Source: Bacilli bacterium (GTDB lineage: Bacteria > Bacillota_I > Bacilli_A > RF39 > UBA660). Taken from it: a DNA stretch of 64,000 bases. Positions 7,225 to 57,479 of this stretch are shown piece by piece. Both the position numbers and the translations under genes were made by a program. The notes beneath the pieces are model-generated. The model saw only the letters and a list, made by a program, of their open reading frames with translations, made no database searches and was not told the origin of the DNA. Every line of letters begins with the position of its first letter. Position 1 is the stretch's first letter. The stretch is taken from contig JAFRCD010000002.1 of assembly GCA_017404555.1 (NCBI GenBank), positions 59,793 to 123,792 on the forward strand, given 5' to 3'.

Positions 7225-8148
7225 TTATTTTGTAATTATTGTTGCTTCATTACCTTCTAAAGCATTAGTTAAATTATTTAAATCAGTGATGATAGCATCA
7301 TTACCTGTTTCTTTAACAAACTCAATAGCTGCTTCTACTTTAGGAAGCATACTTCCTTTAGCAAAGTGTCCTTCAGCTATATACTTTTCCATAGTAGCAA
7401 TATCTACTTTACCAATATCTTGAGCATTATCAGTATTATAGTTAATCTGAGCCTGTTTTATATTAGTTAGAATAACTAATAGATCAGCATTAATATTACG
7501 TGCCATTAATGAACATAATTTATCTTTATCAATAACAGCACTAGCACCTTTAGTAGGTTCATCTAAATAGACAGGAATTCCTCCACCGCCACCAGCAATA
7601 ACTATATTATCTTTTTCAATTAAATCTCTGATGGTATCTATTTCTACTATTTCTATTGGTTCTGGTGAAGCTACTACTTTTCGGTAACCACGTCCGGCAT
7701 CTTCAACATAAGTATCACCACTAGTTTCTTTTAATTTATCAGCTACTTCTTTAGTATAGAATGGTCCGATTGGTTTAGTAGGGTTTTTAAATGATGGATC
7801 ATTCTTATCAACCTTTACTTGGGTAATTAAACTAACTACACTTTTACTGATATTTTCTTCATTTAAGACCTCTTTAATTCCTTTTTGTAAGTGATAACCA
7901 ATATATCCTTGGCTCATGGCAGTACATTCAGCAAGCGGCATATAAGGAATATCTTCATTATCAAGACTGTTTTCAAAAGCCAAGTTAATAATTCCTACTT
8001 GAGGACCATTACCATGACCAATTACTACTTTATCACCAGCTTTTACTAAAGGAACAATAGTCTTAACAGCTTCCTTAATTAAAGCTTGTTGCTCGTCGGG
8101 AGTATTACCTAAAGCATTACCCCCGAAAGCAATAACTATTTTTCTCAT
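7225..8148 (-). CDS. aguC: Carbamate kinase
   Basis: [13 protein letters not shown] ... GHGNGPQVG carbamate-kinase signature; last gene of the aguBDAC arrangement. Confidence 0.9.
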
Positions 8149-9245: not shown

Positions 9246-9292
9246 ATTTCCTCCTATAATTAAATTAGTAGGTTTAAAACCCACTAATTTTT

Positions 9293-10702: not shown

Positions 10703-10703
10703 A

Positions 10704-11693
10704 TTAATTTTCCTTTCCTAATAATTTATTACATTCTTCACAGGCTTCATCCTTCTTACCCATGAAGTATACTAAAAGCCCTCTCATGGCTGTTAGTCGA
10801 TTTTCAGCTTCATCGAAGCAAATAGAAACATTCTCATCATCCATAACATCATCAGTTACTTCTTCACCTCTAGTTGCTGGTAAACAGTGCATAAACTTAA
10901 CGTTTGGAGCACATTTAGCTAGTAACTCTTTATTAACTTGATATTTAGGATAGAATATTTTCATTCTCTCTTCTTTAGGCATTTCTGATTCATATAATCC
11001 ATACCAAACATCGGTATAAACGAAATCAGCATCTTTTAAGGCTTCTTCAGCATTATCAGTTATTAAGTAAGTACCTCCAGATACTTTACAGTTTTCTTCT
11101 AAAGAATCAATATAATCTCCTCGAAGTTGGAATCCCTCTGGTCCAAAGTGAACAAAGTGACCACCCATCTTCGTAATCATCATTCCAAGTGATGCACATA
11201 CTTGAGTACAATCACCAACAAAGACAACTTTGATATCTTCTAATCCTTTACCTTCTGGTAAGTGTTCAAAGATAGTAATGATGTCACCCATTTCCTGAGT
11301 TGGATGATTATAATCACTCATACCATTTAGTACTGGTACTTGTGAATATTGCGCTAACTCAGCAATAGTCTTATGCTCAATTACTCTAGCCATGATAATA
11401 TCAACAAGTCTTGACATAACAATAGCCGTATCCTTCATACTCTCATGTTTACCAAGTTGTAAGTTTCCTGGAGCAAAATACTGAGCATGTCCTCCTAACT
11501 GTGTCATCGCTGTCTCAAATGAAACCCTCGTTCTCGTAGAAGCTTGTTCAAAGATCATTCCTAAAGTCTTATGATATAACGTATTTAACGTATGACCAGC
11601 TTTAAGAGTTTTTTTGATTAATAAGCTTAACTGGAGAATATCCAAAAGTTCCTCTTTAGTAAAATCTTGGGTTGTAACATAATCTTTTTTCAA
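10704..11693 (-). CDS. aguB: Putrescine carbamoyltransferase
   Basis: Carbamoyltransferase STRTR motif (STRTRVSFE) and HCLP motif. The start codon appears to be TTG (caa at 11691-11693 on the plus strand), preceded by an AAGGAGG RBS. Confidence 0.8.
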
Positions 11694-12783: not shown

Positions 12784-13574
12784 GCTACCACCTTCTTCCT
12801 AATCTTTCTTGATTGATAAATTATTGAAATAGTTAAGATGATAATTACCGTTAGTAGCATTAAACTAGTTAAGGCATTGACATCCGGAGTAATTCCCGTT
12901 TTAATCATTGAATATATCTTTAATGGTAAAGTGTTACTACCAGGCCCAGCTGTAAAGTAAGAAATAACTACATCATCCATTGATAACGTAAAAGCTAAAG
13001 TAGCTCCACTAATAACTCCTGGTCTTATAAGCGGCAAAGTTATCTCTTTAAATACTTTGAACTTGGAAGCACCTAAGTCTTCAGCTGCTTCTTCAATCTT
13101 TTTAGTTGTATCAGATAAAGTTGAACGAACACTAGTAATTACAAAAGGAATAGAAAAAGCAATATGCGATAAAATTAAAGTAAACATTCCTAAATTAAGA
13201 TTCATTAAAGTATAAACACTAAGTAAGGCAATACCTAATACTATTTCTGGAATAATAATTGGTATATAAAGTAATTTGTTCACAAAGTTTTTACCAAGGA
13301 ATTTATACTTATATAAACCAACAGCAGCGGTAGTACCAATAACTGTTGAAGTAACAGTAGATGTTACAGCAATAATAATTGTATTTATAAATGCTTCTAA
13401 AAGATCTCTATTTTTAAATAGTTCAGTATACCATTTTGTGGTAAAACCAGTGAAAACAATGTTAGTTTTGGCTTTATTAAAAGAATAAATGACTAAAACT
13501 GCAATTGGTAAATAAAGAAAGATAAAGACTAAAATGATAAAGAGGTTTCTTAAGAATTTATTTTTATGTTCCAT
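12780..13574 (-). CDS. potC: Spermidine/putrescine ABC transporter permease
   Basis: Six-TM permease with the EAA-type loop (EAAEDLGASKF). Confidence 0.85.
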   Translation of the reverse strand: MEHKNKFLRNLFIILVFIFLYLPIAVLVIYSFNKAKTNIVFTGFTTKWYTELFKNRDLLEAFINTIIIAVTSTVTSTVIGTTAAVGLYKYKFLGKNFVNKLLYIPIIIPEIVLGIALLSVYTLMNLNLGMFTLILSHIAFSIPFVITSVRSTLSDTTKKIEEAAEDLGASKFKVFKEITLPLIRPGVISGATLAFTLSMDDVVISYFTAGPGSNTLPLKIYSMIKTGITPDVNALTSLMLLTVIIILTISIIYQSRKIRKKVVA

Positions 13575-13575
13575 C

Positions 13576-14442
13576 TTACATTCCTCCTAACTCATCGATG
13601 TTTCCACCGATTTTCTTATATACTCTAACTAGAAGGAAAGTTACAATAATTAAGAAAATAGAAATAGCAGAACCAAAAGGCCAGTTACGGGCTGTTAAGA
13701 ATTGATCTTTGATTAAGTTACCAATAATCATTTGTTTTCCGCCACCTAAAATATCAGAAATAAAGAAATAACCAATAGCTGGGATAAAGACCATTAAAGA
13801 ACCATTAAAGGCTCCTGAAATTGTTTCTTTAAAGATAATATCTTTAAAAACATGGAATTTATTAGCTCCTAAGTCTTTAGCGGCCTTAATTAGATTAGGA
13901 TCTAATTTATTAACCGCAGCATAAACTGGTAATATCATAAAAGGAAGTAAGGTATAAACCATACCAATAATAATACCAATATTGTTATACATTAAACTTA
14001 AAGGTTCTTTAATAATATTTAGGGAAGTTAACCCATTATTAATAATTCCGTTTTTGCGAAGTAAAACAATCCAACCATAAGTTCTAATAAGGGAATTAGT
14101 AAGAAAGGGAATCATTACTAACTTAATTAAAGCATTTCGAACTTCTTCTTTTTTATCCATTAAAAAGATGGCGAATGGATAAGCAATCACTAAACAAATT
14201 AACGTTGTTATAATTCCAATTAAAGCTGATTTGGCAAATATTAATAAATAAGTACTATCAATAATCGTTAAATAATTAACAATACTAAAATGGTAGTTAA
14301 TACCTCCAACATAGTCTGTTTCACAGAAACTTAAAAATAATATATAGAGAAGTGGTAAAAGAATTAAAACAAAACTATATATTACTACTGGCCATAAAGA
14401 AATATTTTTAAAAAGATCTAACTTCTTATTCATTTTTGTCAC
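13576..14442 (-). CDS. potB: Spermidine/putrescine ABC transporter permease
   Basis: Six-TM permease with the EAA-type loop (KAAKDLGANKF). Confidence 0.85.
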   Translation of the reverse strand: MTKMNKKLDLFKNISLWPVVIYSFVLILLPLLYILFLSFCETDYVGGINYHFSIVNYLTIIDSTYLLIFAKSALIGIITTLICLVIAYPFAIFLMDKKEEVRNALIKLVMIPFLTNSLIRTYGWIVLLRKNGIINNGLTSLNIIKEPLSLMYNNIGIIIGMVYTLLPFMILPVYAAVNKLDPNLIKAAKDLGANKFHVFKDIIFKETISGAFNGSLMVFIPAIGYFFISDILGGGKQMIIGNLIKDQFLTARNWPFGSAISIFLIIVTFLLVRVYKKIGGNIDELGGM

Positions 14443-15502
14443 CTAAAACAATAATATATTTTTTAGGAACTTTAAGATATACATCACTACCCTCTTTAAA
14501 AGAAGAGGCATCCATTAAATTTATTCTTAATTCGGTATTATCTTTTTGAACAATTAATTTAGTAATCATACCATCATAAATATATTCTTTAACAACTCCT
14601 TTGAAGGAATCAAGACTTTCAATAGAACTAATATCAAAGCATTCAGGTCTAATAACAACTGTTTTCTCTTCCCCTACTTGATAATTTTTATTATCAATTG
14701 TTAAGTCCATATTATCAGGTAACGAAACAACTGCTTCATTTTCACTTACTTTCGTTATTTTACCAGTTAGTATATTAGCTTCACCAATGAAGTCTGCAAC
14801 AAACTTAGTATGTGGTTTCCGATAAATGTTTTCAGGAGTATCAATTTGTTCTACTGTACCATTATTAATAATCGCAATTCGATCAGACATGGTTAAAGCC
14901 TCATCTTGATCATGAGTAACATAAATAAAAGTAATCCCTAGTTGTTTTTGAATCTTTTTAAGTTCAATCTGCATCTCCCGTTTTAACTTTAAATCTAAAG
15001 ACGCTAAAGATTCATCAAGTAAAAGTACTTTATGATTTAAAACAATTCCCCGGGCAATCGCTACTCTTTGTTGTTGTCCACCAGAAAGTTCATCTGGTTT
15101 TCTATTTTCGAAACCCTTTAGTTTAACTAAATTAATCGCATCTTTAATTCTTTTATCTGCTTCAGTTCTAGGTACTTTATGCATTTTTAAACCGAAATCT
15201 ATATTATCCCAAACAGTCATATGTGGGAATAAAGCAAAATTTTGGAAAATAGTATTTACTTCTCTTTTAGCAGGTACAATATCAGTAACGTCTTTACCAT
15301 CAATAATTACTTTACCACTAGTTACTTTTTCCAAACCCGAAATCATTCTTAAAATAGTTGTCTTTCCACAACCAGAAGGTCCTAAAAGGGTTAAAAACTC
15401 CCCTTCATAGATATCGAGATTTAAATCTTTGATAACGTGTTCTTTACCAAATTTTTTAGATAAGTTTTTTAATTCTACTAATACCCTTTTCATTCTATCC
15501 AC
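14426..15502 (-). CDS. potA: Spermidine/putrescine ABC transporter ATP-binding protein
   Basis: Walker A GPSGCGKTT, signature LSGGQQQRVAIAR, and a C-terminal TOBE-like regulatory domain. Confidence 0.9.
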   Translation of the reverse strand: MDRMKRVLVELKNLSKKFGKEHVIKDLNLDIYEGEFLTLLGPSGCGKTTILRMISGLEKVTSGKVIIDGKDVTDIVPAKREVNTIFQNFALFPHMTVWDNIDFGLKMHKVPRTEADKRIKDAINLVKLKGFENRKPDELSGGQQQRVAIARGIVLNHKVLLLDESLASLDLKLKREMQIELKKIQKQLGITFIYVTHDQDEALTMSDRIAIINNGTVEQIDTPENIYRKPHTKFVADFIGEANILTGKITKVSENEAVVSLPDNMDLTIDNKNYQVGEEKTVVIRPECFDISSIESLDSFKGVVKEYIYDGMITKLIVQKDNTELRINLMDASSFKEGSDVYLKVPKKYIIVLGDKNE

Positions 15503-15535
15503 CTATTATAATTATACCTGTTATTTATTTAAAAG

Positions 15536-27673: not shown

Positions 27674-29611
27674 TTACTTTTGATGTTTCACCTTTAATTT
27701 TTCTCTATTTTGAAATAATAACACTCCTCCAACACCTATACCGACTAGTATTAGATAAGGTAGGATTGTTAGAAATAATCCTGTCACCGGTGAACCTTCT
27801 CTTTGATTATAGAAATTAACAACATTACCATTATGAGTTATCGAGTTAGATCCCGTATCATTTCCACTAGACTCACTTCCACTATTTATCTTAAAGGTTG
27901 TGGTATAGTCACTTTCTGTACCTTCTATTATCTTGTAATAATCATCTATAGAAATAGAGTCGTAAGTATTGTTGTTATATGTAAACTGTCCTATAGTAGC
28001 TGTTTCTCCATGATTTAGAGTAATTGAATCTTTTGTACCACTCTTACACTTAGTTACTTCAGAACCATCTTCAGGTACTCCTGTTCCTTTTATTAAGTAT
28101 TTCTCACTTCCAGAGTAACTTTGACAAGCACTACTTGCAGCATCATCTACTTGAACACTGAAACTAAAGTCTTTAGTTCTATCAGCCATAATACCTTTAA
28201 CTGTTTTAGTTAGTTCTATATGTCCAAACTTAGTTTCATCCTTTGGCTCATTAAAAGGCATATTACTTACTTTGGTATCATTATCATCTTTAATAACAAA
28301 CTTAGCATTAAAGTTTCCTGTTGGAGTTCCATTTTGATCAGTTACATTTGTTACTTGTACTATTACTGTATATTCATTATCATTATCTACTGGATATGCA
28401 CTATTACTAGTAGCAGTCTCTTTCACAGTCAATTCATAATTGCCTGGTTTTTTAAAGCTTAGTCCCATATTAGCAAAATTAATTGTTGTACTCTTATTTA
28501 CTGTATAACTATTACTTACAGTTTCAGTTCCAGCGAAAGATATGTCTTGGGTGTAGAATACTATTCCACTACCAAAAGTTGGTGATTGGGATGGAGATGA
28601 TACTTGACTACCCTTTATAACGTTTGATCCTGCTGATTTAGTAGCGATTATATTATCAATATTAGAAGTTCCACTCCCATAGTTTACTGATATTTGGGTT
28701 CCTGATTGCGTAGCTGCATTAGTAAAGGCACCACTATAATTTGTTGGGTTAGCTAATATCTGAATTGTCCCAGAAGCATTTGTACAACCATTGAACATAT
28801 TATTAACATTAGTCACCCTTGAAGTGTCCCAATTACTAATACTATTTATATTGCTCAAACTACTACAGCTATCAAACATCCCTCCCATATTTGTTACTTT
28901 GGAAGTGTTCCAATCTGATAAAGAATTTATACTTGTTAAAGAACTACAGTAAATGAACATGGCAGACATAGTAGTTACATTTGAAAGATCCCACGCACTT
29001 GTTGCATCTACACTAGATAATTGTGAACAATATGCAAACATCCAAGATGTATTAGTTGTTTTAGAAGCATCTACTAAACTAAGGCCTGATATATCCATTA
29101 ATCCTTGCATGTTTCTAAACATGTTGGCAGAAGATGAATTCAAGTATATTTTATCTGCTTCACTATAATAATACATCGTTCCGTCCGTACTATCAAAAAA
29201 GATGTATATTGGAAACTCCGAATTGGCTACCGATACTGTGTTTGCTGCGGTTGGAACAAAACCACTTGGTAAAGAACCAGCTTTTTTTATAGATTTTATT
29301 GCAGTGTCAGGTGAGCTGTATGTCTTTGTTGAACCATTAGCAAGAGTTTTCATTATTCCATTAACTGTTGTTCCTGTGTTAAAAGTTGCCAATCTAATTA
29401 GTGAGGTATCTTCTGTTGATATACTATAAGTAAAATCTACTACAGGAGCATTATAAACGTTTTGTATTGTCCTTGATATTGTTGCAGTACTACCATCTGG
29501 CCAGTTAACAGTACCTGCCGCTTTTACTTCCATTGTTTTGAATGTTAACACTCCTACTAGTGCTACTACAAGTATTAAAGTTATATTGTATAAATTAAAT
29601 ACTTTTTTCAT
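27674..29611 (-). CDS. Cell-surface protein with DUF285-type repeats and an SPVTG sorting signal; paralogue of 5795..7135
   Basis: Signal peptide. Tandem repeats of about 26 aa with W-[DN]-[TL]-S-x-V-T-x-M-x-x-M-F-x-x-C. C-terminal module shared with 5795..7135, then SPVTG + hydrophobic stretch + NREKLKVKHQK. Confidence 0.6.
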   Translation of the reverse strand: MKKVFNLYNITLILVVALVGVLTFKTMEVKAAGTVNWPDGSTATISRTIQNVYNAPVVDFTYSISTEDTSLIRLATFNTGTTVNGIMKTLANGSTKTYSSPDTAIKSIKKAGSLPSGFVPTAANTVSVANSEFPIYIFFDSTDGTMYYYSEADKIYLNSSSANMFRNMQGLMDISGLSLVDASKTTNTSWMFAYCSQLSSVDATSAWDLSNVTTMSAMFIYCSSLTSINSLSDWNTSKVTNMGGMFDSCSSLSNINSISNWDTSRVTNVNNMFNGCTNASGTIQILANPTNYSGAFTNAATQSGTQISVNYGSGTSNIDNIIATKSAGSNVIKGSQVSSPSQSPTFGSGIVFYTQDISFAGTETVSNSYTVNKSTTINFANMGLSFKKPGNYELTVKETATSNSAYPVDNDNEYTVIVQVTNVTDQNGTPTGNFNAKFVIKDDNDTKVSNMPFNEPKDETKFGHIELTKTVKGIMADRTKDFSFSVQVDDAASSACQSYSGSEKYLIKGTGVPEDGSEVTKCKSGTKDSITLNHGETATIGQFTYNNNTYDSISIDDYYKIIEGTESDYTTTFKINSGSESSGNDTGSNSITHNGNVVNFYNQREGSPVTGLFLTILPYLILVGIGVGGVLLFQNREKLKVKHQK

Positions 29612-32787: not shown

Positions 32788-33177
32788 ATGGATAATAATG
32801 ATTGTTGTCTAGGAAAACTATTAAAAGTTATTGATACATTACAAAAAAACGCCAACAACGAATGTCCAATTGATGAAGGTTGTAGTCGTCCTTATTTAGG
32901 AACTTTTACTAGTTCTTTGTGTTATAACACAAGACCAGTAACTTTATATTTAAAAAATGGTGATTTATTTAGTGCTCCTTATAATAGTACTGGTACTACA
33001 TCTTCTGTTTTCAGAGTGGAAAGAGTTAAAGATTGTTGTGCTAAGTTAAGAGTCTTAGAGCCAGTTGTTAATGAGGGTGTTACTACTTATAATGCTACTA
33101 ACTTTTTTGTTGATGTTAATTTACAATGTATCTGTGCTATTAAATGTTTAGCTGACATTATTTTAGAAAATATTTAG
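32788..33177 (+). CDS. CotY/CotZ-family cysteine-rich spore coat/exosporium protein
   Basis: The SVFRVERVKDCCAKLRVL and FFVDVNLQCICAIKCL blocks match the CotY/CotZ hallmarks (FFRVE...CCATL...CIEVDL.CFCAI.CL). AAGGAG RBS. Confidence 0.75.
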   Translation: MDNNDCCLGKLLKVIDTLQKNANNECPIDEGCSRPYLGTFTSSLCYNTRPVTLYLKNGDLFSAPYNSTGTTSSVFRVERVKDCCAKLRVLEPVVNEGVTTYNATNFFVDVNLQCICAIKCLADIILENI

Positions 33178-33192: not shown

Positions 33193-33594
33193 ATGTGTGA
33201 GGAACAAAATAATACTTGTTGTTTAGAAAATACTTTAGCTAAGATTATTAAATTACAATGTATAGATTCTATCTGTGATGTTGAAGGAGGTTGTGATAAA
33301 CCTTTTTTAGGACCTACTCCTAGTATGGTTTGTTATAATACCAGACCAATTAGTCTTTATAACTGTTGTACTGGAGCTCTATGGAGTTTTCCCTATACCA
33401 GTGGAGAAACAACAGCCAATTCCACTGTCTTTAGAGCCGAATCACTAGATGGTTGTTGTCTTACTTGTCGGATCTTAATTGATAATGGCAATGATACTTA
33501 TACCGATACTTCAGAATTCTTTACTATAAACCTAAAATGTTGTGGTGCTCTACAATGTCATAGTGATGCTTTCGTTGAATTTAATAATAATTAA
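33193..33594 (+). CDS. CotY/CotZ-family cysteine-rich spore coat/exosporium protein (tandem paralogue)
   Basis: The TVFRAESLDGCCLTCRIL and FFTINLKCCGALQC blocks. Lies 15 nt after the first gene, with its own AAGGAG RBS. Confidence 0.7.
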   Translation: MCEEQNNTCCLENTLAKIIKLQCIDSICDVEGGCDKPFLGPTPSMVCYNTRPISLYNCCTGALWSFPYTSGETTANSTVFRAESLDGCCLTCRILIDNGNDTYTDTSEFFTINLKCCGALQCHSDAFVEFNNN

Positions 33595-35868: not shown

Positions 35869-37779
35869 CTAAGAATAAACATATTTATAATTAGCTTTGC
35901 ATTTACTAACCCAATAAGAACAAGTCTTTTTCACTCTTGTTGACCTACAACAACGATACTTATTACCACTACGTTCAATAGTTAAACCATTGGCAGAAGA
36001 ACACGCTATTCGGCCATTATTAGGAACCGCCCAACCACTACATGATTTTGTCGTATAAGAACAATCATAATACTTTGTACACCCTGTATAATGAGAAAAT
36101 ACTGATTTTCTCTTATATGTTTTAGAAAAAGCTTTACTATTTCCGGCATTATCTGTACAAGTACTACTTATTGTTACACTGGTTCCACTCATTTTTTTAG
36201 AAGTATTGCCACTCTTAATTCCACTTAAGGCATCAGAACATGTTAATTTAGCAGTTCCGCCTGCAGCTATTTGTCCACTAGTAAAGCTTCCTGTAGGATT
36301 AGTACGATCCAGTTTTATAGTATAATTGCTAGAATATGATGAACAATTTCCTAATTTATCACATGCACGATACTTAATATACGATACCCCTTGTGCTTCG
36401 ATGTTGCGAGCTGAAGCTTTTATATTGGTGTCGTTGGAAGTTTTTCCAGTTGTTGTATATTGATAATATACCCCTCCTGCTCCACTATCAGTAGCACCAC
36501 TAGCATTTGTATAGACTTTTCCAGAAAACCAAGTATTATTTGGATAAGCACTTAAGCCACTGGCATTCGCTGGTTTTGTACTGGCATTCTTCCATTTATA
36601 AAGACCTACTTTTAACCCTGTTGGGGCGGTTTTATCAAAATAAGCATCATAAATACAAGATTGAGTGTTTCCCACTTTATCTTTAATCGTTTCCGTGTAT
36701 TTTGCGGTAGTACCACTAGAAAATGTTCTTTGATAAGGACTTTTTTCACAACCACTCTCGTTATCAGCACATGCCAATTTTATTGTTCTACTACTATTAG
36801 TCCAGGTTGTACTTGCCCCTGTAGCCTTTCCACATGTTGGCGGCGTTATATCAATATAAACATTATAAGAGCAAACTTTTTCATTACCGGCTTTATCAGC
36901 TATTGTTACTGAGGCTCTCTTAGTAGTTTCTAAATAAGTATTATTGTAACTACCTCTTGCACAATTACTTCCACCTGTATCATTACAAACTTGGTTTATT
37001 GTACGAGCTTTTTTCGTCCATACATCACTAGCATTTTTTGCCTCTCCACAAGTTGGTGGTGTTTTATCTATTTTTACTTCAACTACTCTGCTTTGGCAAG
37101 TAACTCCGTTAGCACCTCTACCTATTATTCTATATTTGCTTATTCCAGGTTCACTTATAGTAATTGTTTTTTCTTCGTGATTATCGGAATCAAATTTAAC
37201 CCAACCAGCTGCAGTTTGTTTTAGAATATCAAAACTTTCTATTTTGGTAGGTTTTTTAGCTTTCAATATTACATCTTGATTTGTCCATATATTAGCTGGT
37301 GTAGCCTGCAGTATATTATCACAATTTATTATCTTTCCCATATTTGGATCTGCTGTACTTTCTATAACTTTATTTTTATAATTAGGGCAATTCAAATACG
37401 TTTTATAATCATATTTTTTCTCGCCTGTTTTGGTTATTACTACATAACTTTTTTCATCATAAGGCTCACTGGCATTAGGATCACATACTTCTTTAGCATA
37501 ATCTTTTACTTGTTCTATATAATCCTCACTTTGTAAATCAGCTAACGCGACTTTATTTGATTGACCAACTCTAATAGGGCGTTCTCCCTTATGGTCATTA
37601 TAGTAATCCATTCCAGCTGCTACCACTAATTTATCTATTCTTCTATAATAGCTTTTTTCTAAACTCTTCCGTACACCACTTACACCCATTATAGCTAAAG
37701 TTGTTAAAACAGCTACTATAGCTAAGGTTGTTAATAGTTCTACCATTGTAAAACCTTTTTTATTCTTCACTATCATCAC
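35869..37779 (-). CDS. Large type IV prepilin-like protein with cysteine-rich Ig-like repeats
   Basis: Class III signal KGFTMVELLTTLAIVAVLTTLAI (G/FTxxE). Four repeats of about 75-90 aa begin D-x-T-[PAN]-PT-[CG] and carry conserved Cys pairs; a Cys-rich C-terminal tail follows. Confidence 0.6.
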   Translation of the reverse strand: MMIVKNKKGFTMVELLTTLAIVAVLTTLAIMGVSGVRKSLEKSYYRRIDKLVVAAGMDYYNDHKGERPIRVGQSNKVALADLQSEDYIEQVKDYAKEVCDPNASEPYDEKSYVVITKTGEKKYDYKTYLNCPNYKNKVIESTADPNMGKIINCDNILQATPANIWTNQDVILKAKKPTKIESFDILKQTAAGWVKFDSDNHEEKTITISEPGISKYRIIGRGANGVTCQSRVVEVKIDKTPPTCGEAKNASDVWTKKARTINQVCNDTGGSNCARGSYNNTYLETTKRASVTIADKAGNEKVCSYNVYIDITPPTCGKATGASTTWTNSSRTIKLACADNESGCEKSPYQRTFSSGTTAKYTETIKDKVGNTQSCIYDAYFDKTAPTGLKVGLYKWKNASTKPANASGLSAYPNNTWFSGKVYTNASGATDSGAGGVYYQYTTTGKTSNDTNIKASARNIEAQGVSYIKYRACDKLGNCSSYSSNYTIKLDRTNPTGSFTSGQIAAGGTAKLTCSDALSGIKSGNTSKKMSGTSVTISSTCTDNAGNSKAFSKTYKRKSVFSHYTGCTKYYDCSYTTKSCSGWAVPNNGRIACSSANGLTIERSGNKYRCCRSTRVKKTCSYWVSKCKANYKYVYS

Positions 37780-50295: not shown

Positions 50296-50405
50296 TATAA
50301 TCACCTTTATATTTATATAGTATTTTAAATACTCTTAATCGTTACTTTAATTATACCTTTAATTTGATTATAAGTAAATAAAAAACAGTCGTTAGACTGT
50401 CATGT

Positions 50406-50963
50406 TTATTCACTTTCTTCTACTTTAATAAGGCCATGATAATGACCATCTTTATCAAGATTTAAATTAGTGTCTTTATCAATCCATAATCTAATAGTAT
50501 AATCAGCTGTTTTACCAGGTTCAATAATATCAGTAGCTAAAACACCGTTTTCTAATTCATTTAATAAAACGATATTATTATGTTCCTTATCCTTATGATA
50601 ACCAAGCTTAATACTTTCTATTGGTAGTTTAGTATCACTGCATCCATCAAGATCATACTCTTCTTTATCATCAAGAATCTTAACAGTATATTTCAAATTC
50701 ATCTTACTGTTGTTTTTAATACTAATCGTATATCCTTTAGATGAAAGACCTAAAGCATCAGTTAATGGATTTACTTTAGTAATACTGATCTTGTCTTTTT
50801 CTTTTTCATGAAAAGTTACTTCTAAATTCTCAACAGGAGTAACTTGATCATTCTCTTTACTAAATTTATCATAAATAAATCTAGTAGCTACTATTGCGAA
50901 AAGTAAAATAAAGGCAATAACAATACCTCTTTTGAGATAATACTTTAATAAATACTTATTCAT
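50406..50963 (-). CDS. Membrane-anchored hypothetical protein (about 185 aa)
   Basis: Start at the internal Met (MNKYLLKYY...) behind an AAAGAGGTG RBS. Single TM helix, then a probably extracellular beta-rich domain. Confidence 0.35.
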   Translation of the reverse strand: MNKYLLKYYLKRGIVIAFILLFAIVATRFIYDKFSKENDQVTPVENLEVTFHEKEKDKISITKVNPLTDALGLSSKGYTISIKNNSKMNLKYTVKILDDKEEYDLDGCSDTKLPIESIKLGYHKDKEHNNIVLLNELENGVLATDIIEPGKTADYTIRLWIDKDTNLNLDKDGHYHGLIKVEESE

Positions 50964-50976
50964 AAAGCACCTCTTT

Positions 50977-51264
50977 CTATAGTGTGTCTGGAAGCTCTTT
51001 TTTAGAGTGAGCATACTTAATATTTTGACTACTTAAAACTTCATTATTTAACGATCTAGTATCTATTTCTGAAGATAGTAAATCCTTAATATATTCTGCA
51101 CTAGCTTCAGTGGCATAAACACTCTTCATATTTTTAATAAGTTCATTTAAATTATCAGCTTGTTTAGTAAATGCTTTGGTAAGATCAGCAATGTTTTCTT
51201 TACATAAATCTATTTGTCTTTCCAAAGCTAATATTGTATCTTCGGAGATTAATTGATCTTTCAT
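50977..51264 (-). CDS. Small alpha-helical hypothetical protein (95 aa)
   Basis: ORF predicted to be helical. Second of a small-protein pair upstream of the membrane-anchored protein. Confidence 0.3.
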   Translation of the reverse strand: MKDQLISEDTILALERQIDLCKENIADLTKAFTKQADNLNELIKNMKSVYATEASAEYIKDLLSSEIDTRSLNNEVLSSQNIKYAHSKKELPDTL

Positions 51265-51275
51265 AATGATACCTC

Positions 51276-51713
51276 CTATATAACATCTATTTTTTCAAAA
51301 TTATTATTAATATTCACTAGATTACTATTATCACTTAAAACATCTTCCACTTTCTTAACACTTTTAGCTATTTCTTCAGAAACACTATCTAATTGCTGTG
51401 GTTCTAAGTTAAATTTATCTAGATTTTCTAGTATTTTGAAATGAAGAGGACTATTAAGATATTCAACAACTCTATCATATCCATCTATTTTGACATCCCA
51501 AAAAGATTGGTCCATAACTGTAGAAGCTAAAGCATTACCAAAAGCAGAAGTTGGTGCTTTGGTACCATCACACTCTTTTAAAGCGTTGATGGTATGGGCC
51601 AAAAGATTAATTTCATCAACTAGATTAGTATAAGTATTCGTAAGGTTGTTTATTTCAGTTCGTAGTACTTTGGATACTTCACTTATTCCTTTTACCGATA
51701 CTGTACTTTCCAT
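51276..51713 (-). CDS. Small alpha-helical hypothetical protein (145 aa)
   Basis: ORF predicted to be helical/coiled-coil. First gene of the small-protein pair. Confidence 0.3.
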   Translation of the reverse strand: MESTVSVKGISEVSKVLRTEINNLTNTYTNLVDEINLLAHTINALKECDGTKAPTSAFGNALASTVMDQSFWDVKIDGYDRVVEYLNSPLHFKILENLDKFNLEPQQLDSVSEEIAKSVKKVEDVLSDNSNLVNINNNFEKIDVI

Positions 51714-51802: not shown

Positions 51803-51834
51803 CAAAAAAAACAAAACCACTATAATAGTGGTTT
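51803..51834 (-). terminator. Rho-independent terminator after tRNA-Arg
   Basis: Hairpin aaaccact-ataat-agtggttt followed by a U-run on the minus transcript. Confidence 0.55.
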
Positions 51835-51844
51835 TATATCAAAA

Positions 51845-51921
51845 TGGTACCCGCGAGGCGACTCGAACGCCTGACCGATCGCTTAGAAGGCGATTGCTCT
51901 ATCCAACTGAGCTACGCAGGC
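51845..51921 (-). tRNA. tRNA-Arg (anticodon UCU), CCA encoded
   Basis: The reverse complement GCCUGCGUAGCUCAGUUGGAUAGAGCAAUCGCCUUCUAAGCGAUCGGUCAGGCGUUCGAGUCGCCUCGCGGGUACCA folds as a cloverleaf with anticodon loop CUUCUAA. Confidence 0.85.
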
Positions 51922-51975: not shown

Positions 51976-52920
51976 TTAGGGTAAATCTTTTCTAGTTATC
52001 TCTTTTATTTTTTGACCATTTACTTTAAATACTACTTTCTCTTTTTCCAAGGTTTCAAATACTGAATATGATATTGAATAAATAACTTCTTCTAAAATTT
52101 CCTTTTTACGGTCAAAAATACCCGAATCAAAATCTAGAGTTATAGATGTATCATCTTCGTCATAACCTTTTAGATGAGTATTATTATTTAAAAAGCTCAT
52201 TAGATTAGGTTCATAAATATAACTACTAGCTAATTCATCAATAATAACTTTTATTTTTTGATCTTTAGTATTTAAATACTTAGTTACTGGGACATAATAA
52301 TTATTGCTATCAATTTCTTCTAAATAGTATAAGACTACTTTTTGTGTATCTTCTCTTTTATGGATATCTATTCTTTTATTAATTCCTATTTCCCGAGTTA
52401 ATACTTCCGGTAAAGGAATATTAGTATTGGGATAAGTTTTTAAAACTTGATCTTCTACTAAGATTTGAACTTCTTTAATATCAGCGATATCAGTAATACT
52501 AAATACTAAAGATTCTATTAGTTTTTTAGAAAGATGAGGAGTTATGTTAAATAGTTCTTTAGAAAAGTTAAGTATTGCTCTTCCATCTTTAACATTGATA
52601 CTTTTTATTTTGGTATTTTTAGGAATTGTTCCTCTTAAACCAGTTGGTTTTAATGTTTGAGAATCATCTTTTAAAATATTTATAATCTTGCGAATATTCT
52701 TTTCATCAGATTCTTCATCTAAAATTATTCTATTTTTAACTAAATATTCATTAGAATCCATTAAATAAACACTGTTAGTTCCCAACCCTGATAAATACTC
52801 TATTTCTAAACCAACCGGTAACTCTTCTTCTTTATTGGTAGGTAAAAAATAAATAGTCATAAGAACAAATGCAGTTAGGGTTGTTATAAAGATTTTTCGA
52901 AGAGCCTTTTTCTTAAGCAT
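51976..52920 (-). CDS. Membrane-anchored protein, possibly GerM-like (GerMN-domain) sporulation/germination protein
   Basis: N-terminal anchor. Repeated segments (ILNFSKE..., ITLDFDSGI...) resemble GerMN domains. Adjacent to gerE. Confidence 0.3.
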   Translation of the reverse strand: MLKKKALRKIFITTLTAFVLMTIYFLPTNKEEELPVGLEIEYLSGLGTNSVYLMDSNEYLVKNRIILDEESDEKNIRKIINILKDDSQTLKPTGLRGTIPKNTKIKSINVKDGRAILNFSKELFNITPHLSKKLIESLVFSITDIADIKEVQILVEDQVLKTYPNTNIPLPEVLTREIGINKRIDIHKREDTQKVVLYYLEEIDSNNYYVPVTKYLNTKDQKIKVIIDELASSYIYEPNLMSFLNNNTHLKGYDEDDTSITLDFDSGIFDRKKEILEEVIYSISYSVFETLEKEKVVFKVNGQKIKEITRKDLP

Positions 52921-52934: not shown

Positions 52935-52962
52935 AAGTATATGAAAAAACGCACTAAAAAAG
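52935..52962 (-). terminator. Possible terminator after gerE (hairpin with a G-U pair)
   Basis: On the minus transcript, CGUAC-uuuuuua-GUGCG is followed by UUUUUU. Confidence 0.3.
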
Positions 52963-52967
52963 TACGT

Positions 52968-53174
52968 TTATAAAGATATTTCATTTAGTTTTAATAATTC
53001 AACTACGGCACTAGCGCGACCACTAACACCTAGTTTCTGCATTGCATTTGATATATGATTACGAACTGTTTTTTCACTGATGTTTAACTCAGTAGCTATT
53101 TCTTTAGTTGTCATATTATCAACTAAAAGTTCAAATACTTCTCTTTCTCTATTAGTTAAAATTCTTTTAACCAT
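52968..53174 (-). CDS. gerE: Sporulation transcription regulator GerE (LuxR-type HTH)
   Basis: The 68-aa sequence LTNREREVFELLVDNMTTKEIATELNISEKTVRNHISNAMQKLGVSGRASAVVELL is almost identical to Bacillus GerE. Confidence 0.9.
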   Translation of the reverse strand: MVKRILTNREREVFELLVDNMTTKEIATELNISEKTVRNHISNAMQKLGVSGRASAVVELLKLNEISL

Positions 53175-53206
53175 TTTTTCACCTCTTTATACTGAATACC
53201 TATCAA

Positions 53207-53234
53207 TATTTTATGAGGTGAAGTCATCTCCTGT
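53207..53234 (-). promoter_or_regulatory. Sigma-K-type promoter motif upstream of gerE (AC-17-CATAAAATA)
   Basis: On the minus strand, CATAaaaTA (53207-53215) and AC (53233-53234) with a 17-nt spacer, about 32 nt upstream of the gerE ATG. Confidence 0.4.
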
Positions 53235-53743
53235 TAATTCTTATGCCCATTTTGGAATTTAACAGTAGTAAAGACTCGTTCTTGATACTCTTCTTGAATA
53301 GTTCGCATGATATCATTAGCTAAAACTTTATCATATTTATCACTAATAGCGACTACAGATATATTACTATTATCTATTTTAACAAAACTATCTATTTTTA
53401 AGTTATCTTTTATTTTATTTTCTAATTTCTCTTCTTTACCCTTTAATCCATTTAAATACTTTAATTGTTCATAAGCATTATTCTTTTCATCTGCTGTTAG
53501 ATCTTTATTAGTTAATTGTTCTTTTAAAGTTGTAGTTAATTCTTCCCTTTCTTCTTCTAGTGATACTCGCATAGCTTCTAATTCATTTGTCTTTTTAACT
53601 TTAGCCTTTTTAAGTTTACTTTTTTCTACTACTTCTTTAGTGTTTTTTAAAACTAAGTCATTAGGCATTGTAATATAATATACACTTAGTACTAATATCA
53701 AACTGAAGAGTGTTAAAAACCACAAATTTTGTTTATTAATCAT
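53234..53743 (-). CDS. spoIIIAH: SpoIIIAH-like sporulation protein (YscJ/FliF-type domain)
   Basis: N-terminus MINKQNLWFLTLFSLILVLSVYYITMP closely resembles Bacillus SpoIIIAH (..WLLTMLSLVVVLSVYYIMSP). Coiled-coil Lys/Glu-rich middle and a C-terminal ISVVAISDKYDK...VFTTVKFQ region. Confidence 0.55.
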   Translation of the reverse strand: MINKQNLWFLTLFSLILVLSVYYITMPNDLVLKNTKEVVEKSKLKKAKVKKTNELEAMRVSLEEEREELTTTLKEQLTNKDLTADEKNNAYEQLKYLNGLKGKEEKLENKIKDNLKIDSFVKIDNSNISVVAISDKYDKVLANDIMRTIQEEYQERVFTTVKFQNGHKN

Positions 53744-53810
53744 CCGAACATTTCCTCACTTTCTAATTAAGTGTATGATTAATTAAATAATTTAGAACTA
53801 CTTTTTAAGA

Positions 53811-53836
53811 CAATAAAAAAGCGCTTAATGCGCTTT
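53811..53836 (-). terminator. Rho-independent terminator after gene 53841..54470
   Basis: Hairpin aagcgc-ttaat-gcgctt followed by a U-run on the minus transcript. Confidence 0.5.
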
Positions 53837-53840
53837 AAAA

Positions 53841-54470
53841 CTATCTCAAGTCTTCTAAGAAGTGATCAAGTTCTGATTCATTATCATAGCTATATAAGTA
53901 TTTAGTAGTATAACTACTAGCATAGTTTTCAACATCAATTGCGACTAAAAGAGATTTCTTATTATCTTTATTTGGTACATAGACAATATTTAATAAGTCT
54001 CCTTGATTAGTAGAACTATAGATATTATCTGAGATTGAGAAACTATAACCAGGACAAGTAACCTCATATTTTATTTCTTCTACTTTAGAGGCTGCTTTTA
54101 GTTTATTAAAGACCTTAGTAATAGAGTCTTTAGAAAGTATCTTATGGGTTTTATCAAAAGCATTACTACTGCTGGCATCAGCAAGTTTACAAGTTGATAA
54201 ATAAGGGTGGGTACTCTTAACATTATCCATATAGTCCTCTATCTTAGCCTGCATACCATCATAATCAAACTTAGAGTTTTTAGCAACCACTTTTTCTTGT
54301 TTTTTTTCATCATTACTAGGTGGTACTGTTTCCTTTTTATAAGTTGTCTCTTTCTCTTTTGGTTGATAATCAGCTACAGCATCAAAAACTATATAAGCCC
54401 CCATTGCTAAAACTAATAGCCCTAAAACACATACTACAATAATAAATATTACTCTTTCTGTACTCTTCAT
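53841..54470 (-). CDS. Membrane-anchored hypothetical protein (209 aa)
   Basis: N-terminal TM helix and an extracellular domain with two Cys. Sits between efp and spoIIIAH where Bacillus has spoIIIAA-AG. Confidence 0.3.
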   Translation of the reverse strand: MKSTERVIFIIVVCVLGLLVLAMGAYIVFDAVADYQPKEKETTYKKETVPPSNDEKKQEKVVAKNSKFDYDGMQAKIEDYMDNVKSTHPYLSTCKLADASSSNAFDKTHKILSKDSITKVFNKLKAASKVEEIKYEVTCPGYSFSISDNIYSSTNQGDLLNIVYVPNKDNKKSLLVAIDVENYASSYTTKYLYSYDNESELDHFLEDLR

Positions 54471-54519
54471 ACTTCCTCCTTTATTTTATTATACAATAAA
54501 ACATGCTCTTAAAAAGAGC

Positions 54520-55077
54520 CTAAGCTCTTGATGAATATTTACCATTAGCAGTACTAATAAGTATTTTTTCTCCCTCTTCAATAAATAGAGGTACTTTTAC
54601 TACTAGCCCTGTTTCTACTGTAGCATCTTTCATAGCATTATTAGCAGTATTACCTTTAACAGCTGGTTCAGTGGCTGTTACTGTTAATTCTACTTTATCA
54701 GGTAAATCGATACCTAATAGTTCTCCTTCATAAAGGATAACTTGGACATTCATGTTTTCGATTAAATAATTCGTGGCATCACCAATTTGATCTTTAGAAA
54801 GTTCTAATTGCTCATAAGTATCCATATTCATGAAATAATAAATATCACCAGTATTATATAAATACTGAACATTTTGTTTACTAATATTTGCTCTAGCAAA
54901 TTTTACATTAGTATTGAATGTCTTATCAAGAATACCTCCAGAACGAAGATTTCTTAATTTAATCTTCATAAAAGCAGGACCTTTACCTGGTTTTACATGT
55001 AAAAATTCAACTATTTGATAAATCTCATTATCAATCATAATAGTCATACCATTTTTAATATCATTTATGTTAATCAT
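54520..55077 (-). CDS. efp: Elongation factor P
   Basis: Full-length EF-P match (KNGMTIMIDNEIYQIVEFLHVKPGKGPAFMKIKLRNL). Confidence 0.95.
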   Translation of the reverse strand: MININDIKNGMTIMIDNEIYQIVEFLHVKPGKGPAFMKIKLRNLRSGGILDKTFNTNVKFARANISKQNVQYLYNTGDIYYFMNMDTYEQLELSKDQIGDATNYLIENMNVQVILYEGELLGIDLPDKVELTVTATEPAVKGNTANNAMKDATVETGLVVKVPLFIEEGEKILISTANGKYSSRA

Positions 55078-55089
55078 CTTTTACACCTT

Positions 55090-55254
55090 CTATTTCTTTT
55101 CTTTATGAGTTGTATGTTTTCTACATTTTGGACAATACTTACTTATTTCTAATCTATCAGTAGTATTTTTAACATTCTTATCTACACGATAGTTTTCTTC
55201 TTTACATTCACTACATACAAGTGTCTTATATTGTCTGTTTCCTACTTTTGCCAT
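55090..55254 (-). CDS. rpmG: 50S ribosomal protein L33
   Basis: Absent from the ORF track because it is short. Reverse translation gives [54 protein letters not shown] (54 aa) with the CxxC...CxxC motif. Confidence 0.85.
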
Positions 55255-55317: not shown

Positions 55318-57408
55318 TTAATATCCGTACATATCAAAATATTTAGCTGTTATCTCCTTAGAGATTCTCATTGTAACTAAGGAAGCGTAATCACTCTTAG
55401 AATTTGGGTAAGATGAGTTTGGTGAAACAACAGTAATAGTAAATCTTGGGTTAACTGAAGGTACATATCCTAAGAAGGAACTAGTAATAGTTTCTGTATC
55501 AATTCTACCATCATCATCAGTATCAATAAAGCTTTGAGAAGTACCAGTTTTACCTGCTGAATCATGGTCATAAGCTACATAGCCACGTCCATAACCATCA
55601 CCACGCATAGTAACCGCATGGAACCCTTCTTTAACTCGATTGAAGTATTCATCTTTAGTATCAACTTTATTTAACACTTCTCGTTTAGATTTATAAATGA
55701 TTTTACCTAAAGCCTCCGTATTAGTTGCTTCATGAACTTCTCTTAACATCTGCGGTTTAATTCGCTCTTTGCTATCACCAGCAAAAGTTGTTATATACTG
55801 GGATAATTGCATTGGAGTATATGTTTCATACTGACCCATAACATAATCAAGTAAATTACCTGATGATTTGTCTTTTCCTTTACCGGAAACACCTATTGAT
55901 TCAACTGGTAAGTCTATTTCTGTTTTAACTCCTAGTCCAAAGGAATTATACATTTTTCGATATTTATCAAAGACATCTTGTCTAAAAGGAACATATACAC
56001 CATGATAATATTCTACTCCTGAAAGACGCATTGCGATTTTAAATTGATAAACATTGGAAGATTTAGCTAAAGCTGTAATATCATCGATAGTTCCTAAGTT
56101 ATCAACAGAAGAACACTTCTCTGGAGCTCCCGATATTTTAACACATTCATCACGCATGTACTCTCCTATTTCAACTCCACCGTTATTATAACCAACTAGC
56201 ATAGAAGCTCCTTTTACAACGGAACCTGGAGTAACTGGTGAAGTAAGAATAGCTGGAGTATAATCTTTAGCTACCCAATGACCATTTTCTAAAACAGCTT
56301 GTTTACCACTAATAGCTAGTATTCCTCCATCTTTAGGATCTTGTAGAATGACAAATGAATGATCATAGTAAGCAGTGTTTTGTTCTCCTTTAGTACTAAT
56401 TACTTGTTGAGATAAAATACGATCTACTTCTTGCTGAAGTTTAATATCAATATTTAAAACAATATCGTTTCCTCTTTTACCTTCGCTTATTAAAGATAAA
56501 GTTTTTGAATTAACAACTTCGTATTTTTCTTTAGTACCATGTAAATAGTTTTCATATTGTTTTTCAATATAACTTGTACCAACTCGATCACTTAGGCTAT
56601 AACCATTAGCTAAATAATAGGCTTTTTCCTCAGCTGGTAGTCCTTGAGTAGCTGAAGAAACATTACCTAAAATAGTTTTTAAAGTATCTCCATAAGGATA
56701 AGTTCTTTCCCAATCTAGTCTAGTATTAAATCCAGATAAATTATTACTATTCTCTGTAAAATAAGCATACTCTTCTTCTGTAACGTTAGTCTTAATTATC
56801 TTATCATCATAAGCATAGCCTTTATTCATTAAATAATAAATATAAGTTGCTTTATTATCATCATTAGTAAAACTATTTAAAATATTATCTGTTATTCTTT
56901 CTTTTTGTCTTTTTAAGATATCACTACTAGTAATTTTTCTTTCTTCTAAAGCAGTCCATTCATTTTGAGTAATTAATTTCTTAGCTTTAGTAGGATACTT
57001 TTTTAAATAAAAGTCTTTTTTCATATCAATAGTTAATTTGGAAATATCCAATTCAATATGAGGTGCAACTAAATAAGCTAGTTCTATTTCTTTTTTAGTA
57101 GTATTAGTTTTTTGTTTTTTATAATAAATAGTTTTAACCGCAACATTATCAACCAAAATATTATAGTTTCGATCATAAATTCTTCCTCTTGGTGATGATG
57201 GACCTTCAACATCATCATAAGAAAGTTTAGTTAGTTTCTTTTCATATTCTTTTTTATCAACAATCATTACTTGAAATAATCTAGTTATAATAACTAAAAA
57301 AACAAAAATAGTTATCCCCAGCAAAAAAATACTCCTCCTAGACAAAATTTTGTCAAAAGAAGTTCTTTTCTTACTACGATTAATTCTCTTTGTTTTCTTT
57401 TTAGCCAT
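55318..57408 (-). CDS. Class B penicillin-binding protein (transpeptidase; PBP2B/SpoVD-like)
   Basis: N-terminal anchor, dimerisation domain, and transpeptidase motifs SVVK (SxxK), SSN-like and KTGT. Start moved to the Met (MAKKKTKR) behind a GGGGGAAAA RBS. Confidence 0.85.
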   Translation of the reverse strand: MAKKKTKRINRSKKRTSFDKILSRRSIFLLGITIFVFLVIITRLFQVMIVDKKEYEKKLTKLSYDDVEGPSSPRGRIYDRNYNILVDNVAVKTIYYKKQKTNTTKKEIELAYLVAPHIELDISKLTIDMKKDFYLKKYPTKAKKLITQNEWTALEERKITSSDILKRQKERITDNILNSFTNDDNKATYIYYLMNKGYAYDDKIIKTNVTEEEYAYFTENSNNLSGFNTRLDWERTYPYGDTLKTILGNVSSATQGLPAEEKAYYLANGYSLSDRVGTSYIEKQYENYLHGTKEKYEVVNSKTLSLISEGKRGNDIVLNIDIKLQQEVDRILSQQVISTKGEQNTAYYDHSFVILQDPKDGGILAISGKQAVLENGHWVAKDYTPAILTSPVTPGSVVKGASMLVGYNNGGVEIGEYMRDECVKISGAPEKCSSVDNLGTIDDITALAKSSNVYQFKIAMRLSGVEYYHGVYVPFRQDVFDKYRKMYNSFGLGVKTEIDLPVESIGVSGKGKDKSSGNLLDYVMGQYETYTPMQLSQYITTFAGDSKERIKPQMLREVHEATNTEALGKIIYKSKREVLNKVDTKDEYFNRVKEGFHAVTMRGDGYGRGYVAYDHDSAGKTGTSQSFIDTDDDGRIDTETITSSFLGYVPSVNPRFTITVVSPNSSYPNSKSDYASLVTMRISKEITAKYFDMYGY

Positions 57409-57479
57409 AATTTTCCCCCATCTATAGTTTATCACATAAATGGAAAGTTATTTCATATATTTTTAAAAAGGAGAAATTT

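Follow-up and report, generated by a model that had tools for sequence, protein, structure and literature searches.

We analyzed a 64-kb stretch of DNA (hereafter the window) from a Bacilli bacterium of the order RF39 (contig JAFRCD010000002.1) and found in it a compact sporulation locus in which spoIIIAH, gerE, and gerM lie side by side, an order that recurs in ~80 related species. In Bacillus subtilis, spoIIIAH closes an eight-gene spoIIIA operon, whereas in the window it stands alone and is followed by gerE and gerM; the seven other genes, spoIIIAA to spoIIIAG (hereafter AA-AG), were detected neither in the window nor upstream of spoIIIAH in the relatives. We attribute this layout, with a probability of roughly 0.7, to a lineage-wide spoIIIAH-gerE-gerM cluster that serves a reduced apparatus of SpoIIQ, SpoIIIAH, and possibly GerM, with AA-AG most likely gone. 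An earlier note on this DNA, made from the letters alone, had offered as one of two readings a reduced apparatus in which the 209-aa protein takes the place of the AG ring. A reduced apparatus, without that role for the 209-aa protein, now stands as the better reading, given ~80 species that carry spoIIIAH with no AA-AG upstream and a published precedent in the Erysipelotrichaceae (10.1101/2022.02.25.481979). The coordinates of the open reading frames (ORFs) on which that note had relied (rpmG, efp, and those of 209, 169, and 68 amino acids, aa) were all reproduced exactly by our ORF list.

SpoIIIAH, GerE, and GerM are encoded side by side

The 169-aa protein of the cluster is a true SpoIIIAH. 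The earlier note had remarked on the resemblance and left its confirmation to a profile search; in that search, the protein matched Pfam family PF12685 with 40.7 bits (gathering score, 30.6; E = 3.2e-10), residues 5 to 152 aligning with profile positions 1 to 181 of 191, and since the match begins at residue 5, it includes the N-terminal transmembrane (TM) helix. The same family was carried by 120 of the 120 homologues listed. When a profile of 19 SpoIIIAH homologues was compared with the whole PDB, the sole matches were the B. subtilis SpoIIIAH structures 3UZ0 and 3TUF (E = 7e-14 and 7e-13), and the alignment spanned the complete extracytoplasmic domain of the window protein. The TM segment is invariant or nearly so in these 19 homologues; in the window protein, this single N-terminal anchor is the hydrophobic stretch LWFLTLFSLILVLSVYYI, modeled by AlphaFold2 (AF2) as a helix at residues 4 to 25. 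The AF2 model as a whole (predicted local distance difference test, pLDDT, 73.5) runs from this helix through a charged, disordered linker and a helical stretch to a strand-strand-helix-strand core (strands at 119 to 124 and 127 to 133, helix at 139 to 150, strand at 158 to 164). Foldseek placed 3UZ0 and 3TUF at the top for this model (target-normalized TM-score, TMt, 0.80 to 0.81; root mean square deviation, rmsd, 2.1 to 2.3 Å; 28% identity), with PrgK (4OYC) and EscJ (1YJ7) appearing from rank 4. The alpha-beta-beta-alpha-beta fold of the SpoIIIAH C-terminal domain is common to YscJ, PrgK, EscJ, and FliF of type III secretion and flagella, which differ from SpoIIIAH in having no sequence-level relationship to it and in their cellular context.

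With its B. subtilis counterpart, the window protein shares the N-terminal TM helix with the family motif, the C-terminal ring-building domain (TM-score 0.81 and rmsd 2.1 Å at 28% identity over ~110 residues), and a sigmaE-type -10 motif upstream of the gene; it measures 169 aa instead of 218 because its linker is shorter. A position as the last gene of a spoIIIAA-AH operon was found neither in the window nor in the relatives. We regard this position as typical of SpoIIIAH but not as defining, because the spore-formers of the Erysipelotrichaceae are also without AA-AG yet keep spoIIIAH.

The 68-aa protein encoded next door is a GerE orthologue, and the placing of gerE beside spoIIIAH in the earlier note is thus borne out. 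The protein matched PF00196 with 75.9 bits, and its best PDB match was B. subtilis GerE (1FSE; E = 2.7e-26, 93 bits), aligned over the full length (residues 3 to 68 against 9 to 74). The runner-up, a 75-aa "DNA-binding response regulator" (6JQS), followed at 83.3 bits, ~10 behind 1FSE, while the other LuxR-type chains reached at most 48 bits, ~45 behind. Like B. subtilis gerE, the gene is preceded by a sigmaK-type promoter motif. The gene after gerE, which the earlier note did not mention, is gerM: its 314-aa product is a GerM orthologue, with 93.5 bits to PF10646 in two stretches and B. subtilis GerM (6GZB) as best PDB match (E = 7e-25, residues 45 to 304 against 50 to 316, covering both domains). 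For GerM as for GerE, then, the B. subtilis protein is the full-length best match. B. subtilis GerM is a lipoprotein, whereas the N-terminal hydrophobic segment of window GerM has no cysteine and no lipobox Cys; because of this, window GerM is probably not a lipoprotein and is probably held by a TM or signal-anchor helix. Unlike in B. subtilis, gerE and gerM are immediate neighbors in the window and are joined to spoIIIAH. The B. subtilis chromosome has what we take to be the order gerE-ysmB-racE-gerM, and because the two genes are near neighbors there, the gerE-gerM pair may be ancestral.

The cluster and its promoter motifs are conserved across ~80 species

A scan of species-representative genomes yielded 456 relatives. 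The best 80 of these 456 are uncultured gut metagenome-assembled genomes (labeled "Bacilli bacterium" or "Tenericutes"), Mycoplasma sp. CAG:877, Clostridium sp. CAG:417, Candidatus Faecimonas intestinavium, and Candidatus Scybalousia. Candidatus Faecimonas corresponds to GTDB genus CAG-877 of family CAG-611 in the order RF39 and has a 1.4-Mb genome with 28% guanine plus cytosine (GC) (PMC8035907); RF39 is described as a reduced-genome Bacilli order that groups with Erysipelotrichales and mycoplasmas (PMC10868615). A SpoIIIAH sequence identical to that of the window was present on metagenome contigs from one study (ENA XIEF21-1 samples).

In a tblastn comparison of the window proteins with all fetched loci, virtually all loci of sufficient length (~80 species) kept spoIIIAH, gerE, and gerM contiguous and unchanged in order: gerE always adjoins spoIIIAH, and gerM adjoins gerE in nearly all. 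Identities between the window and its relatives were 55 to 68% for SpoIIIAH, 62 to 85% for GerE, and 34 to 50% for GerM, compared with 46 to 64% for PBP2B. The three genes are constrained as a unit. A literature search returned no specific account of this cluster or of its promoter architecture.

Promoter-like motifs are conserved along with the genes. The established B. subtilis consensus for the sigmaE -10 element is CATAcanT, and in that organism spoIIIA and gerM are sigmaE-dependent and gerE is sigmaK-dependent. In 95% of the 80 loci, spoIIIAH is preceded by CATAnnnT at a distance of 28 to 33 nt from its start codon, and the full pattern [GT][AC]ATATT-N13-15-CATA[CT]AnT occurred in 55%, against a background of at most 3.9% that is itself inflated, as the control ORF set contains the spoIIIAH ORFs themselves. 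The scan for hairpins found no terminator-like one in the spoIIIAH-gerE interval of the window. Upstream of gerE, CATAnnnTA was present in 81 of 81 loci (background, 4.5%), and its combination with AC 16 to 18 nt further 5', the sigmaK pattern, in 74% of loci (background, 0.7%). Directly after the gerE hairpin, CATAnnnT recurred at a fixed 23 to 25 nt from the gerM start in 95% of the 80 loci. As motif matches, these elements agree with the sigmaE and sigmaK regulation of B. subtilis, and they would be compatible with mother-cell (sigmaE) expression of spoIIIAH.

Two further elements of these intervals deserve mention. The hairpin between gerE and gerM (TCGTACT-N5-AGTACGA followed by a T-run; window 52936-52969) is strongly conserved, in ~75 loci, and the gerM -10-like CATATAnT begins right at the end of the T-run, terminator and promoter being packed unusually tightly. 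In most related loci, an AT-only palindrome, AGAATATT-N3-6-AATATTCT followed by a T-run, lies 5' of spoIIIAH (at ~9945-9975 in locus L013, for example), where its 3' arm overlaps the sigmaE-type -35 (GAATATT); it is absent from the window species. This palindrome could have two roles, terminating transcription of the upstream gene and contributing to the promoter or to an operator.

The remaining spoIIIA genes are most likely lost

The AA-AG families were found neither in the window nor in the ~8 kb and ~6 kb past its ends (~78 kb), and they had no match in the Pfam-annotated loci of the ~80 related species, which cover 8 to 10 kb on either side of spoIIIAH. The earlier note's observation that efp and spoIIIAH lie close together with no AA-AG thus holds for the window, for its flanks, and for ~80 related loci, and in all of this sequence a complete nine-protein SpoIIIA-SpoIIQ "feeding tube," of which AA-AG form part, was not seen. 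We additionally looked for an operon signature of the SpoIIIAE kind, defined as a protein of 300 to 480 aa with at least five predicted TM segments and small TM proteins before it. No such signature turned up in the 1.42 Mb that had been fetched, a weak negative from a crude scan, whose output consisted only of Acyl_transf_3, a histidine kinase, and FtsW/RodA.

Losses of this kind have been described. In the Erysipelotrichaceae spore-formers examined by Galperin (2022), AA-AG are missing genome-wide and of the nine-protein complex only SpoIIQ and SpoIIIAH are kept, with GerM and SpoIVFB also retained (10.1101/2022.02.25.481979); the Erysipelotrichia are likewise reported to be without most spoIIIA products (PMC7924749). 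The Planococcaceae show a milder loss, in which spoIIIAA, AB, AD, and AF are gone and AC, AE, AG, and AH are kept (10.1101/2022.02.25.481979). Because of these published losses, an orphan spoIIIAH in this order group is the expected state and not an anomaly. The Erysipelotrichaceae with the reduced system (Clostridium innocuum and Erysipelatoclostridium ramosum) fall into the same monophyletic Bacilli order group as RF39, and their system shares with the one described here the retention of spoIIIAH and gerM, the lack of detectable AA-AG, and the loss of many other sporulation genes. It differs in that those organisms are cultured and their loss is genome-wide, whereas here we deal with uncultured RF39 members with a genome of ~1.4 Mb, in which the absence of AA-AG is seen locally. 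The Planococcaceae, too, are spore-formers with an incomplete SpoIIIA-SpoIIQ complex, but they keep AE and AG and are without GerM; in the loci described here, GerM is present and neither AE nor AG was seen in the neighborhood of spoIIIAH. Taking the local loci together with the Erysipelotrichaceae literature, we infer that AA-AG are most likely absent genome-wide across the lineage.

The sequence upstream of spoIIIAH was surveyed by clustering the ORFs in the 8 kb 5' of the gene and running Pfam on cluster representatives. In ~60 species, spoIIIAH is preceded by a block consisting of adh_short, a Met_gamma_lyase-family gene, and a DUF5684/zinc-ribbon membrane protein gene, and this block is in turn preceded by PBP2B-rpmG-efp or by ileS. 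The proteins of the block measure ~247 aa, ~416 aa (Met_gamma_lyase/YnbB-like), and ~210 aa (DUF5684 zinc-ribbon; L089, 7213-9938, and ~60 other loci), and the block has been lost from the site upstream of spoIIIAH in the window species. These being the genes that occupy the efp-spoIIIAH interval of the relatives, their candidacy as spoIIIA remnants was ruled out. The efp gene itself lies 5' of spoIIIAH in ~27 related species, and in six species it is the immediate neighbor of spoIIIAH, from which 80 to 96 bp separate it. In B. subtilis, the order is, we assume, efp-yqhV-spoIIIAA...AH, and the efp linkage fits a loss of AA-AG in situ from this ancestral arrangement. The linkage is loose, however: in only about one-third of species do efp and spoIIIAH lie 10 kb or less apart. 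In three species, spoIIGA-sigE lies 5' of spoIIIAH, directly adjacent in L012 and L090. In L022 (2922-6891), the genes 5' of rpmG-efp encode, in tandem, three proteins of ~515 to 530 aa that combine sigma-70 regions 2 and 4, long sigma-like paralogues whose architecture is unusual.

AA-AG might instead persist at another chromosomal site, spoIIIAH alone having been separated and brought beside gerE-gerM, with the full SpoIIIA-SpoIIQ channel still being built, and we consider such an operon split the less likely course. The loci examined span spoIIIAH neighborhoods only, yet in the window, its flanks, and the Pfam-annotated related loci AH is the sole spoIIIA family, and the 1.42 Mb scanned held no AE-like operon signature. 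By KO, RF39 keeps more engulfment genes (spoIIM, spoIIP, spoIIQ, spoIIGA) than Erysipelotrichales and may keep more of spoIIIA as well, but AA-AG do not figure among the RF39 additions over the Erysipelotrichales baseline in the text of Field et al. (PMC10868615). The Planococcaceae demonstrate that partial retention (AC, AE, AG) is possible, whereas the Erysipelotrichaceae spore-formers are without AA-AG genome-wide (10.1101/2022.02.25.481979). Finally, the direct abutment of efp and spoIIIAH in six species is what a deletion of AA-AG in situ would be expected to leave.

Several points nevertheless weigh against a reduced apparatus. To our knowledge, RF39 is without cultured members and its sporulation has never been observed, and no SpoIIQ gene turned up in the sequences that we examined. 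The absence of AA-AG covers the ~78 kb plus 8 to 10 kb on either side of spoIIIAH in ~80 species, and beyond this it draws on the literature for a sister order. The spoIIIAH promoter of the window matches at the -10 element (CATACACT) only, and the good -35 of the relatives is missing. In addition, the text of Field et al. has no explicit AA-AG entry for RF39 (PMC10868615).

The 209-aa protein is very unlikely to substitute for SpoIIIAG

As the earlier note had described, efp is followed in the window by a gene for a membrane-anchored 209-aa protein of no recognizable family: a hydrophobic helix lies at its N terminus, and searches of Pfam, NCBIfam, and PHROGs brought no match that passed the threshold. 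The further proposal that it substitutes for the SpoIIIAG ring could not be upheld. The gene does lie directly 5' of spoIIIAH, but it is bounded by terminator-like hairpins on both sides, toward efp and toward spoIIIAH, and inspection of the sequence 5' of it revealed no sporulation-type -10 (CATAnnnT). The protein combines one N-terminal TM helix with an extracytoplasmic domain of about SpoIIIAG size, in which AF2 placed a low-confidence helix-strand-strand-helix at residues 70 to 126 of an otherwise unusable model (pLDDT 44); against this, hhalign gave a probability of 0.5% for a relation to the SpoIIIAH profile, so that neither similarity to the ring-building domain nor a relation to the YscJ/FliF-type fold was detectable in this comparison. 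Only 3 homologue clusters, at 61 to 99% identity, were present among 5.8 billion proteins, and among the 88 loci compared the gene was found only in those of the window species (L001 to L006). Because ~80 other species keep the same cluster without it, six of them with efp directly abutting spoIIIAH, the protein cannot generally replace SpoIIIAG. On conservation, flanking terminators, and profile comparison we reject it as an AG substitute, and to the idea of a new ring component at this position we give hardly any credence.

In our best explanation, the 209-aa gene is a genus-restricted accessory insertion with no role in the SpoIIIAH machinery. Its site is variable: in L001 (7757-9215), and also in L003 and L005, efp is separated from the 209-aa gene by two further genes, one for an ORF6N anti-repressor-like protein (277 aa, phrog_4792) and one for a 183-aa membrane protein. 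Because the window, L002, and L004 are without these two genes, this interval (window ~54471-54519) is a strain-variable accessory site.

Sporulation genes elsewhere in the window and its relatives

The lineage looks able to sporulate, because spoIIGA-sigE and yqfC-yqfD occur in the relatives and a CotZ-like gene in the window. The products of the spoIIGA-sigE pair beside spoIIIAH in L090 scored 145 bits for SpoIIGA and 324 bits for SigE (best match SigE), and YqfC together with YqfD (209 bits for YqfD) was found in 18 loci of relatives, L089 included. The CotZ-family coat protein of the window (129 aa; PF10612, 61.6 bits; 32788-33177, plus strand) is further evidence for a spore coat in this organism. 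A 133-aa ORF of no family (33193-33594, plus strand) follows right after the CotZ-family gene. RF39 has also been predicted to be capable of forming spores, with spoIIGA, spoIIM, spoIIP, spoIIQ, and "spoIIAH" (evidently spoIIIAH) present, according to Field, Bowerman, and Hugenholtz (2024; PMC10868615).

A contrasting reading would have sporulation lost, with the SpoIIIAH-, GerE-, and GerM-like genes surviving as leftovers or in an envelope function outside sporulation. RF39 genomes are very small (~1.4 Mb), and RF39 spores have, as far as we know, never been observed; yet spoIIIAH, gerE, and gerM are intact and contiguous in ~80 species, at identities similar to that of the neighboring housekeeping PBP2B. 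GerMN domains and LuxR-type helix-turn-helix (HTH) proteins are widespread outside sporulation, but here sporulation-sigma-type promoter motifs are kept at fixed positions, and spoIIGA-sigE, yqfC-yqfD, and the CotZ-like gene are found in the lineage or in the window. We judge a vestigial or repurposed cluster to be distinctly unlikely.

Layout of the locus and other features of the window

The window has a GC content of ~28%, and its minus strand holds nearly all of its genes. Features of the locus are listed in Table 1 in the order of transcription.

Table 1. Features of the spoIIIAH-gerE-gerM locus and its surroundings (window coordinates).
Feature	Coordinates	Strand	Evidence or details
PBP2B-like gene	55318-57435	minus	ORF list
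rpmG (ribosomal protein L33), 54 aa	55090-55254	minus	PF00471, 71.5 bits; TIGR01023, 68.6 bits
efp (elongation factor P), 185 aa	54520-55077	minus	Three EF-P Pfam domains; TIGR00038 (NCBIfam), 252.8 bits, above cutoff
Terminator-like hairpin 3' of efp	54505-54519	minus	GCTCTTTTTAAGAGC, then T-rich tail
Gene for 209-aa membrane-anchored orphan, outside the conserved sporulation cluster	53841-54470	minus	ORF; no family match
Intrinsic-terminator-like hairpin between the 209-aa gene and spoIIIAH	53818-53836	minus	AAAGCGCATTAAGCGCTTT, then TTTATTG
-10-like element of spoIIIAH, sigmaE-type CATAcanT	53770-53777	minus	CATACACT; 27 nt 5' of the start codon
spoIIIAH, 169 aa: N-terminal TM helix, charged linker, C-terminal ring-building domain	53234-53743	minus	PF12685, PDB profile, AF2
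sigmaK-type promoter-like element of gerE	53207-53234	minus	AC (53233-53234), 17-nt spacer, CATAAAATA (53207-53215)
gerE, 68 aa, stand-alone LuxR-type HTH regulator	52968-53174	minus	PF00196; 1FSE
Conserved terminator-like hairpin 3' of gerE	52947-52969	minus	TCGTACT-N5-AGTACGA, then T-run
-10-like element of gerM	52936-52943	minus	CATATACT; 23 nt 5' of the gerM start
gerM, 314 aa: N-terminal hydrophobic anchor without Cys, two GerMN (Germane) domains	51976-52920	minus	PF10646; 6GZB
tRNA-Arg(TCT), downstream boundary of the cluster	51845-51921	minus	ARAGORN, Rfam
Terminator-like hairpin after tRNA-Arg	51811-51837	minus	Hairpin scan

Beyond the tRNA-Arg gene lie three consecutive minus-strand ORFs (145, 95, and 202 aa; 50406-51713) of no family, which tblastn found in the window species only. 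In locus L001, the 185/202-aa ORF and murG are separated by three additional genes without annotation (457, 153, and 94 aa; 13369-15511), which are missing at the corresponding place in the window (~50305-50405). Elsewhere on the minus strand (7225-11693), an apparent agmatine deiminase pathway cluster comprises a carbamate-kinase-like AA_kinase gene, PAD_porph (agmatine deiminase family, 410 bits), an amino-acid permease gene, and an OTCase-family carbamoyltransferase gene. Surface- or pilin-like genes at 739-2340, 5795-7135, 27674-29611, and 35869-37779 show SpaA prealbumin-fold, DUF7601, DUF285, and N_methyl motif matches, the ORF with the N_methyl motif being 636 aa long (633 aa as called in L007). 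Type IV pilin N-methylation motifs also occur in L063, L064, L071, and L077, in tandem genes of ~199 aa located ~2 to 5 kb upstream of PBP2B.

Discussion

If the cluster works as its homology with B. subtilis suggests, sigmaE in the mother cell would drive spoIIIAH and gerM. SpoIIIAH, anchored in the mother-cell membrane by its TM helix, would then use its extracytoplasmic ring-building domain to capture forespore SpoIIQ, by its LytM domain, across the septal space, with GerM and its two GerMN domains assisting the docking of SpoIIIAH and SpoIIQ. The resulting SpoIIQ-SpoIIIAH-GerM "basal platform," or zipper, may support engulfment and anchor or localize other proteins. Later, the sigmaK-type promoter would drive gerE, whose product would tune late mother-cell (coat) genes. 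The rest of the spoIIIA set, seven genes that encode the ATPase, membrane components, and the AG and AF rings, is most probably missing, as in C. innocuum and E. ramosum, and the apparatus would be a reduced version of SpoIIQ, SpoIIIAH, and possibly GerM instead of a full "feeding tube."

In B. subtilis, SpoIIIAA-AG are required for late forespore gene expression and for forespore integrity. Lineages that have only SpoIIQ and SpoIIIAH, with or without GerM, reveal the indispensable core of the channel, a point already made for the Erysipelotrichaceae. The loss of AA-AG with SpoIIQ, SpoIIIAH, and GerM kept has likewise been published for that family, and Field (2024) had already recorded the presence of spoIIIAH in RF39. 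The locus reveals no new mechanism. New here are the finding of the same reduced layout over ~80 species of uncultured RF39 and the recognition of spoIIIAH, gerE, and gerM as one conserved RF39 module with its promoter architecture.

We tentatively suggest, at somewhat less than even odds, that RF39 may build true endospores with a minimal SpoIIQ-SpoIIIAH-GerM trans-septal platform, made without AA-AG from a compact sigmaE/sigmaK-type module. If this is true, RF39 would rank among the endospore formers with the smallest genomes and would offer a natural experiment on what a spore-former can do without in the "feeding tube." The conserved sporulation-sigma motifs support the predicted sporulation of these tiny-genome gut bacteria, which bears on their passage between hosts.

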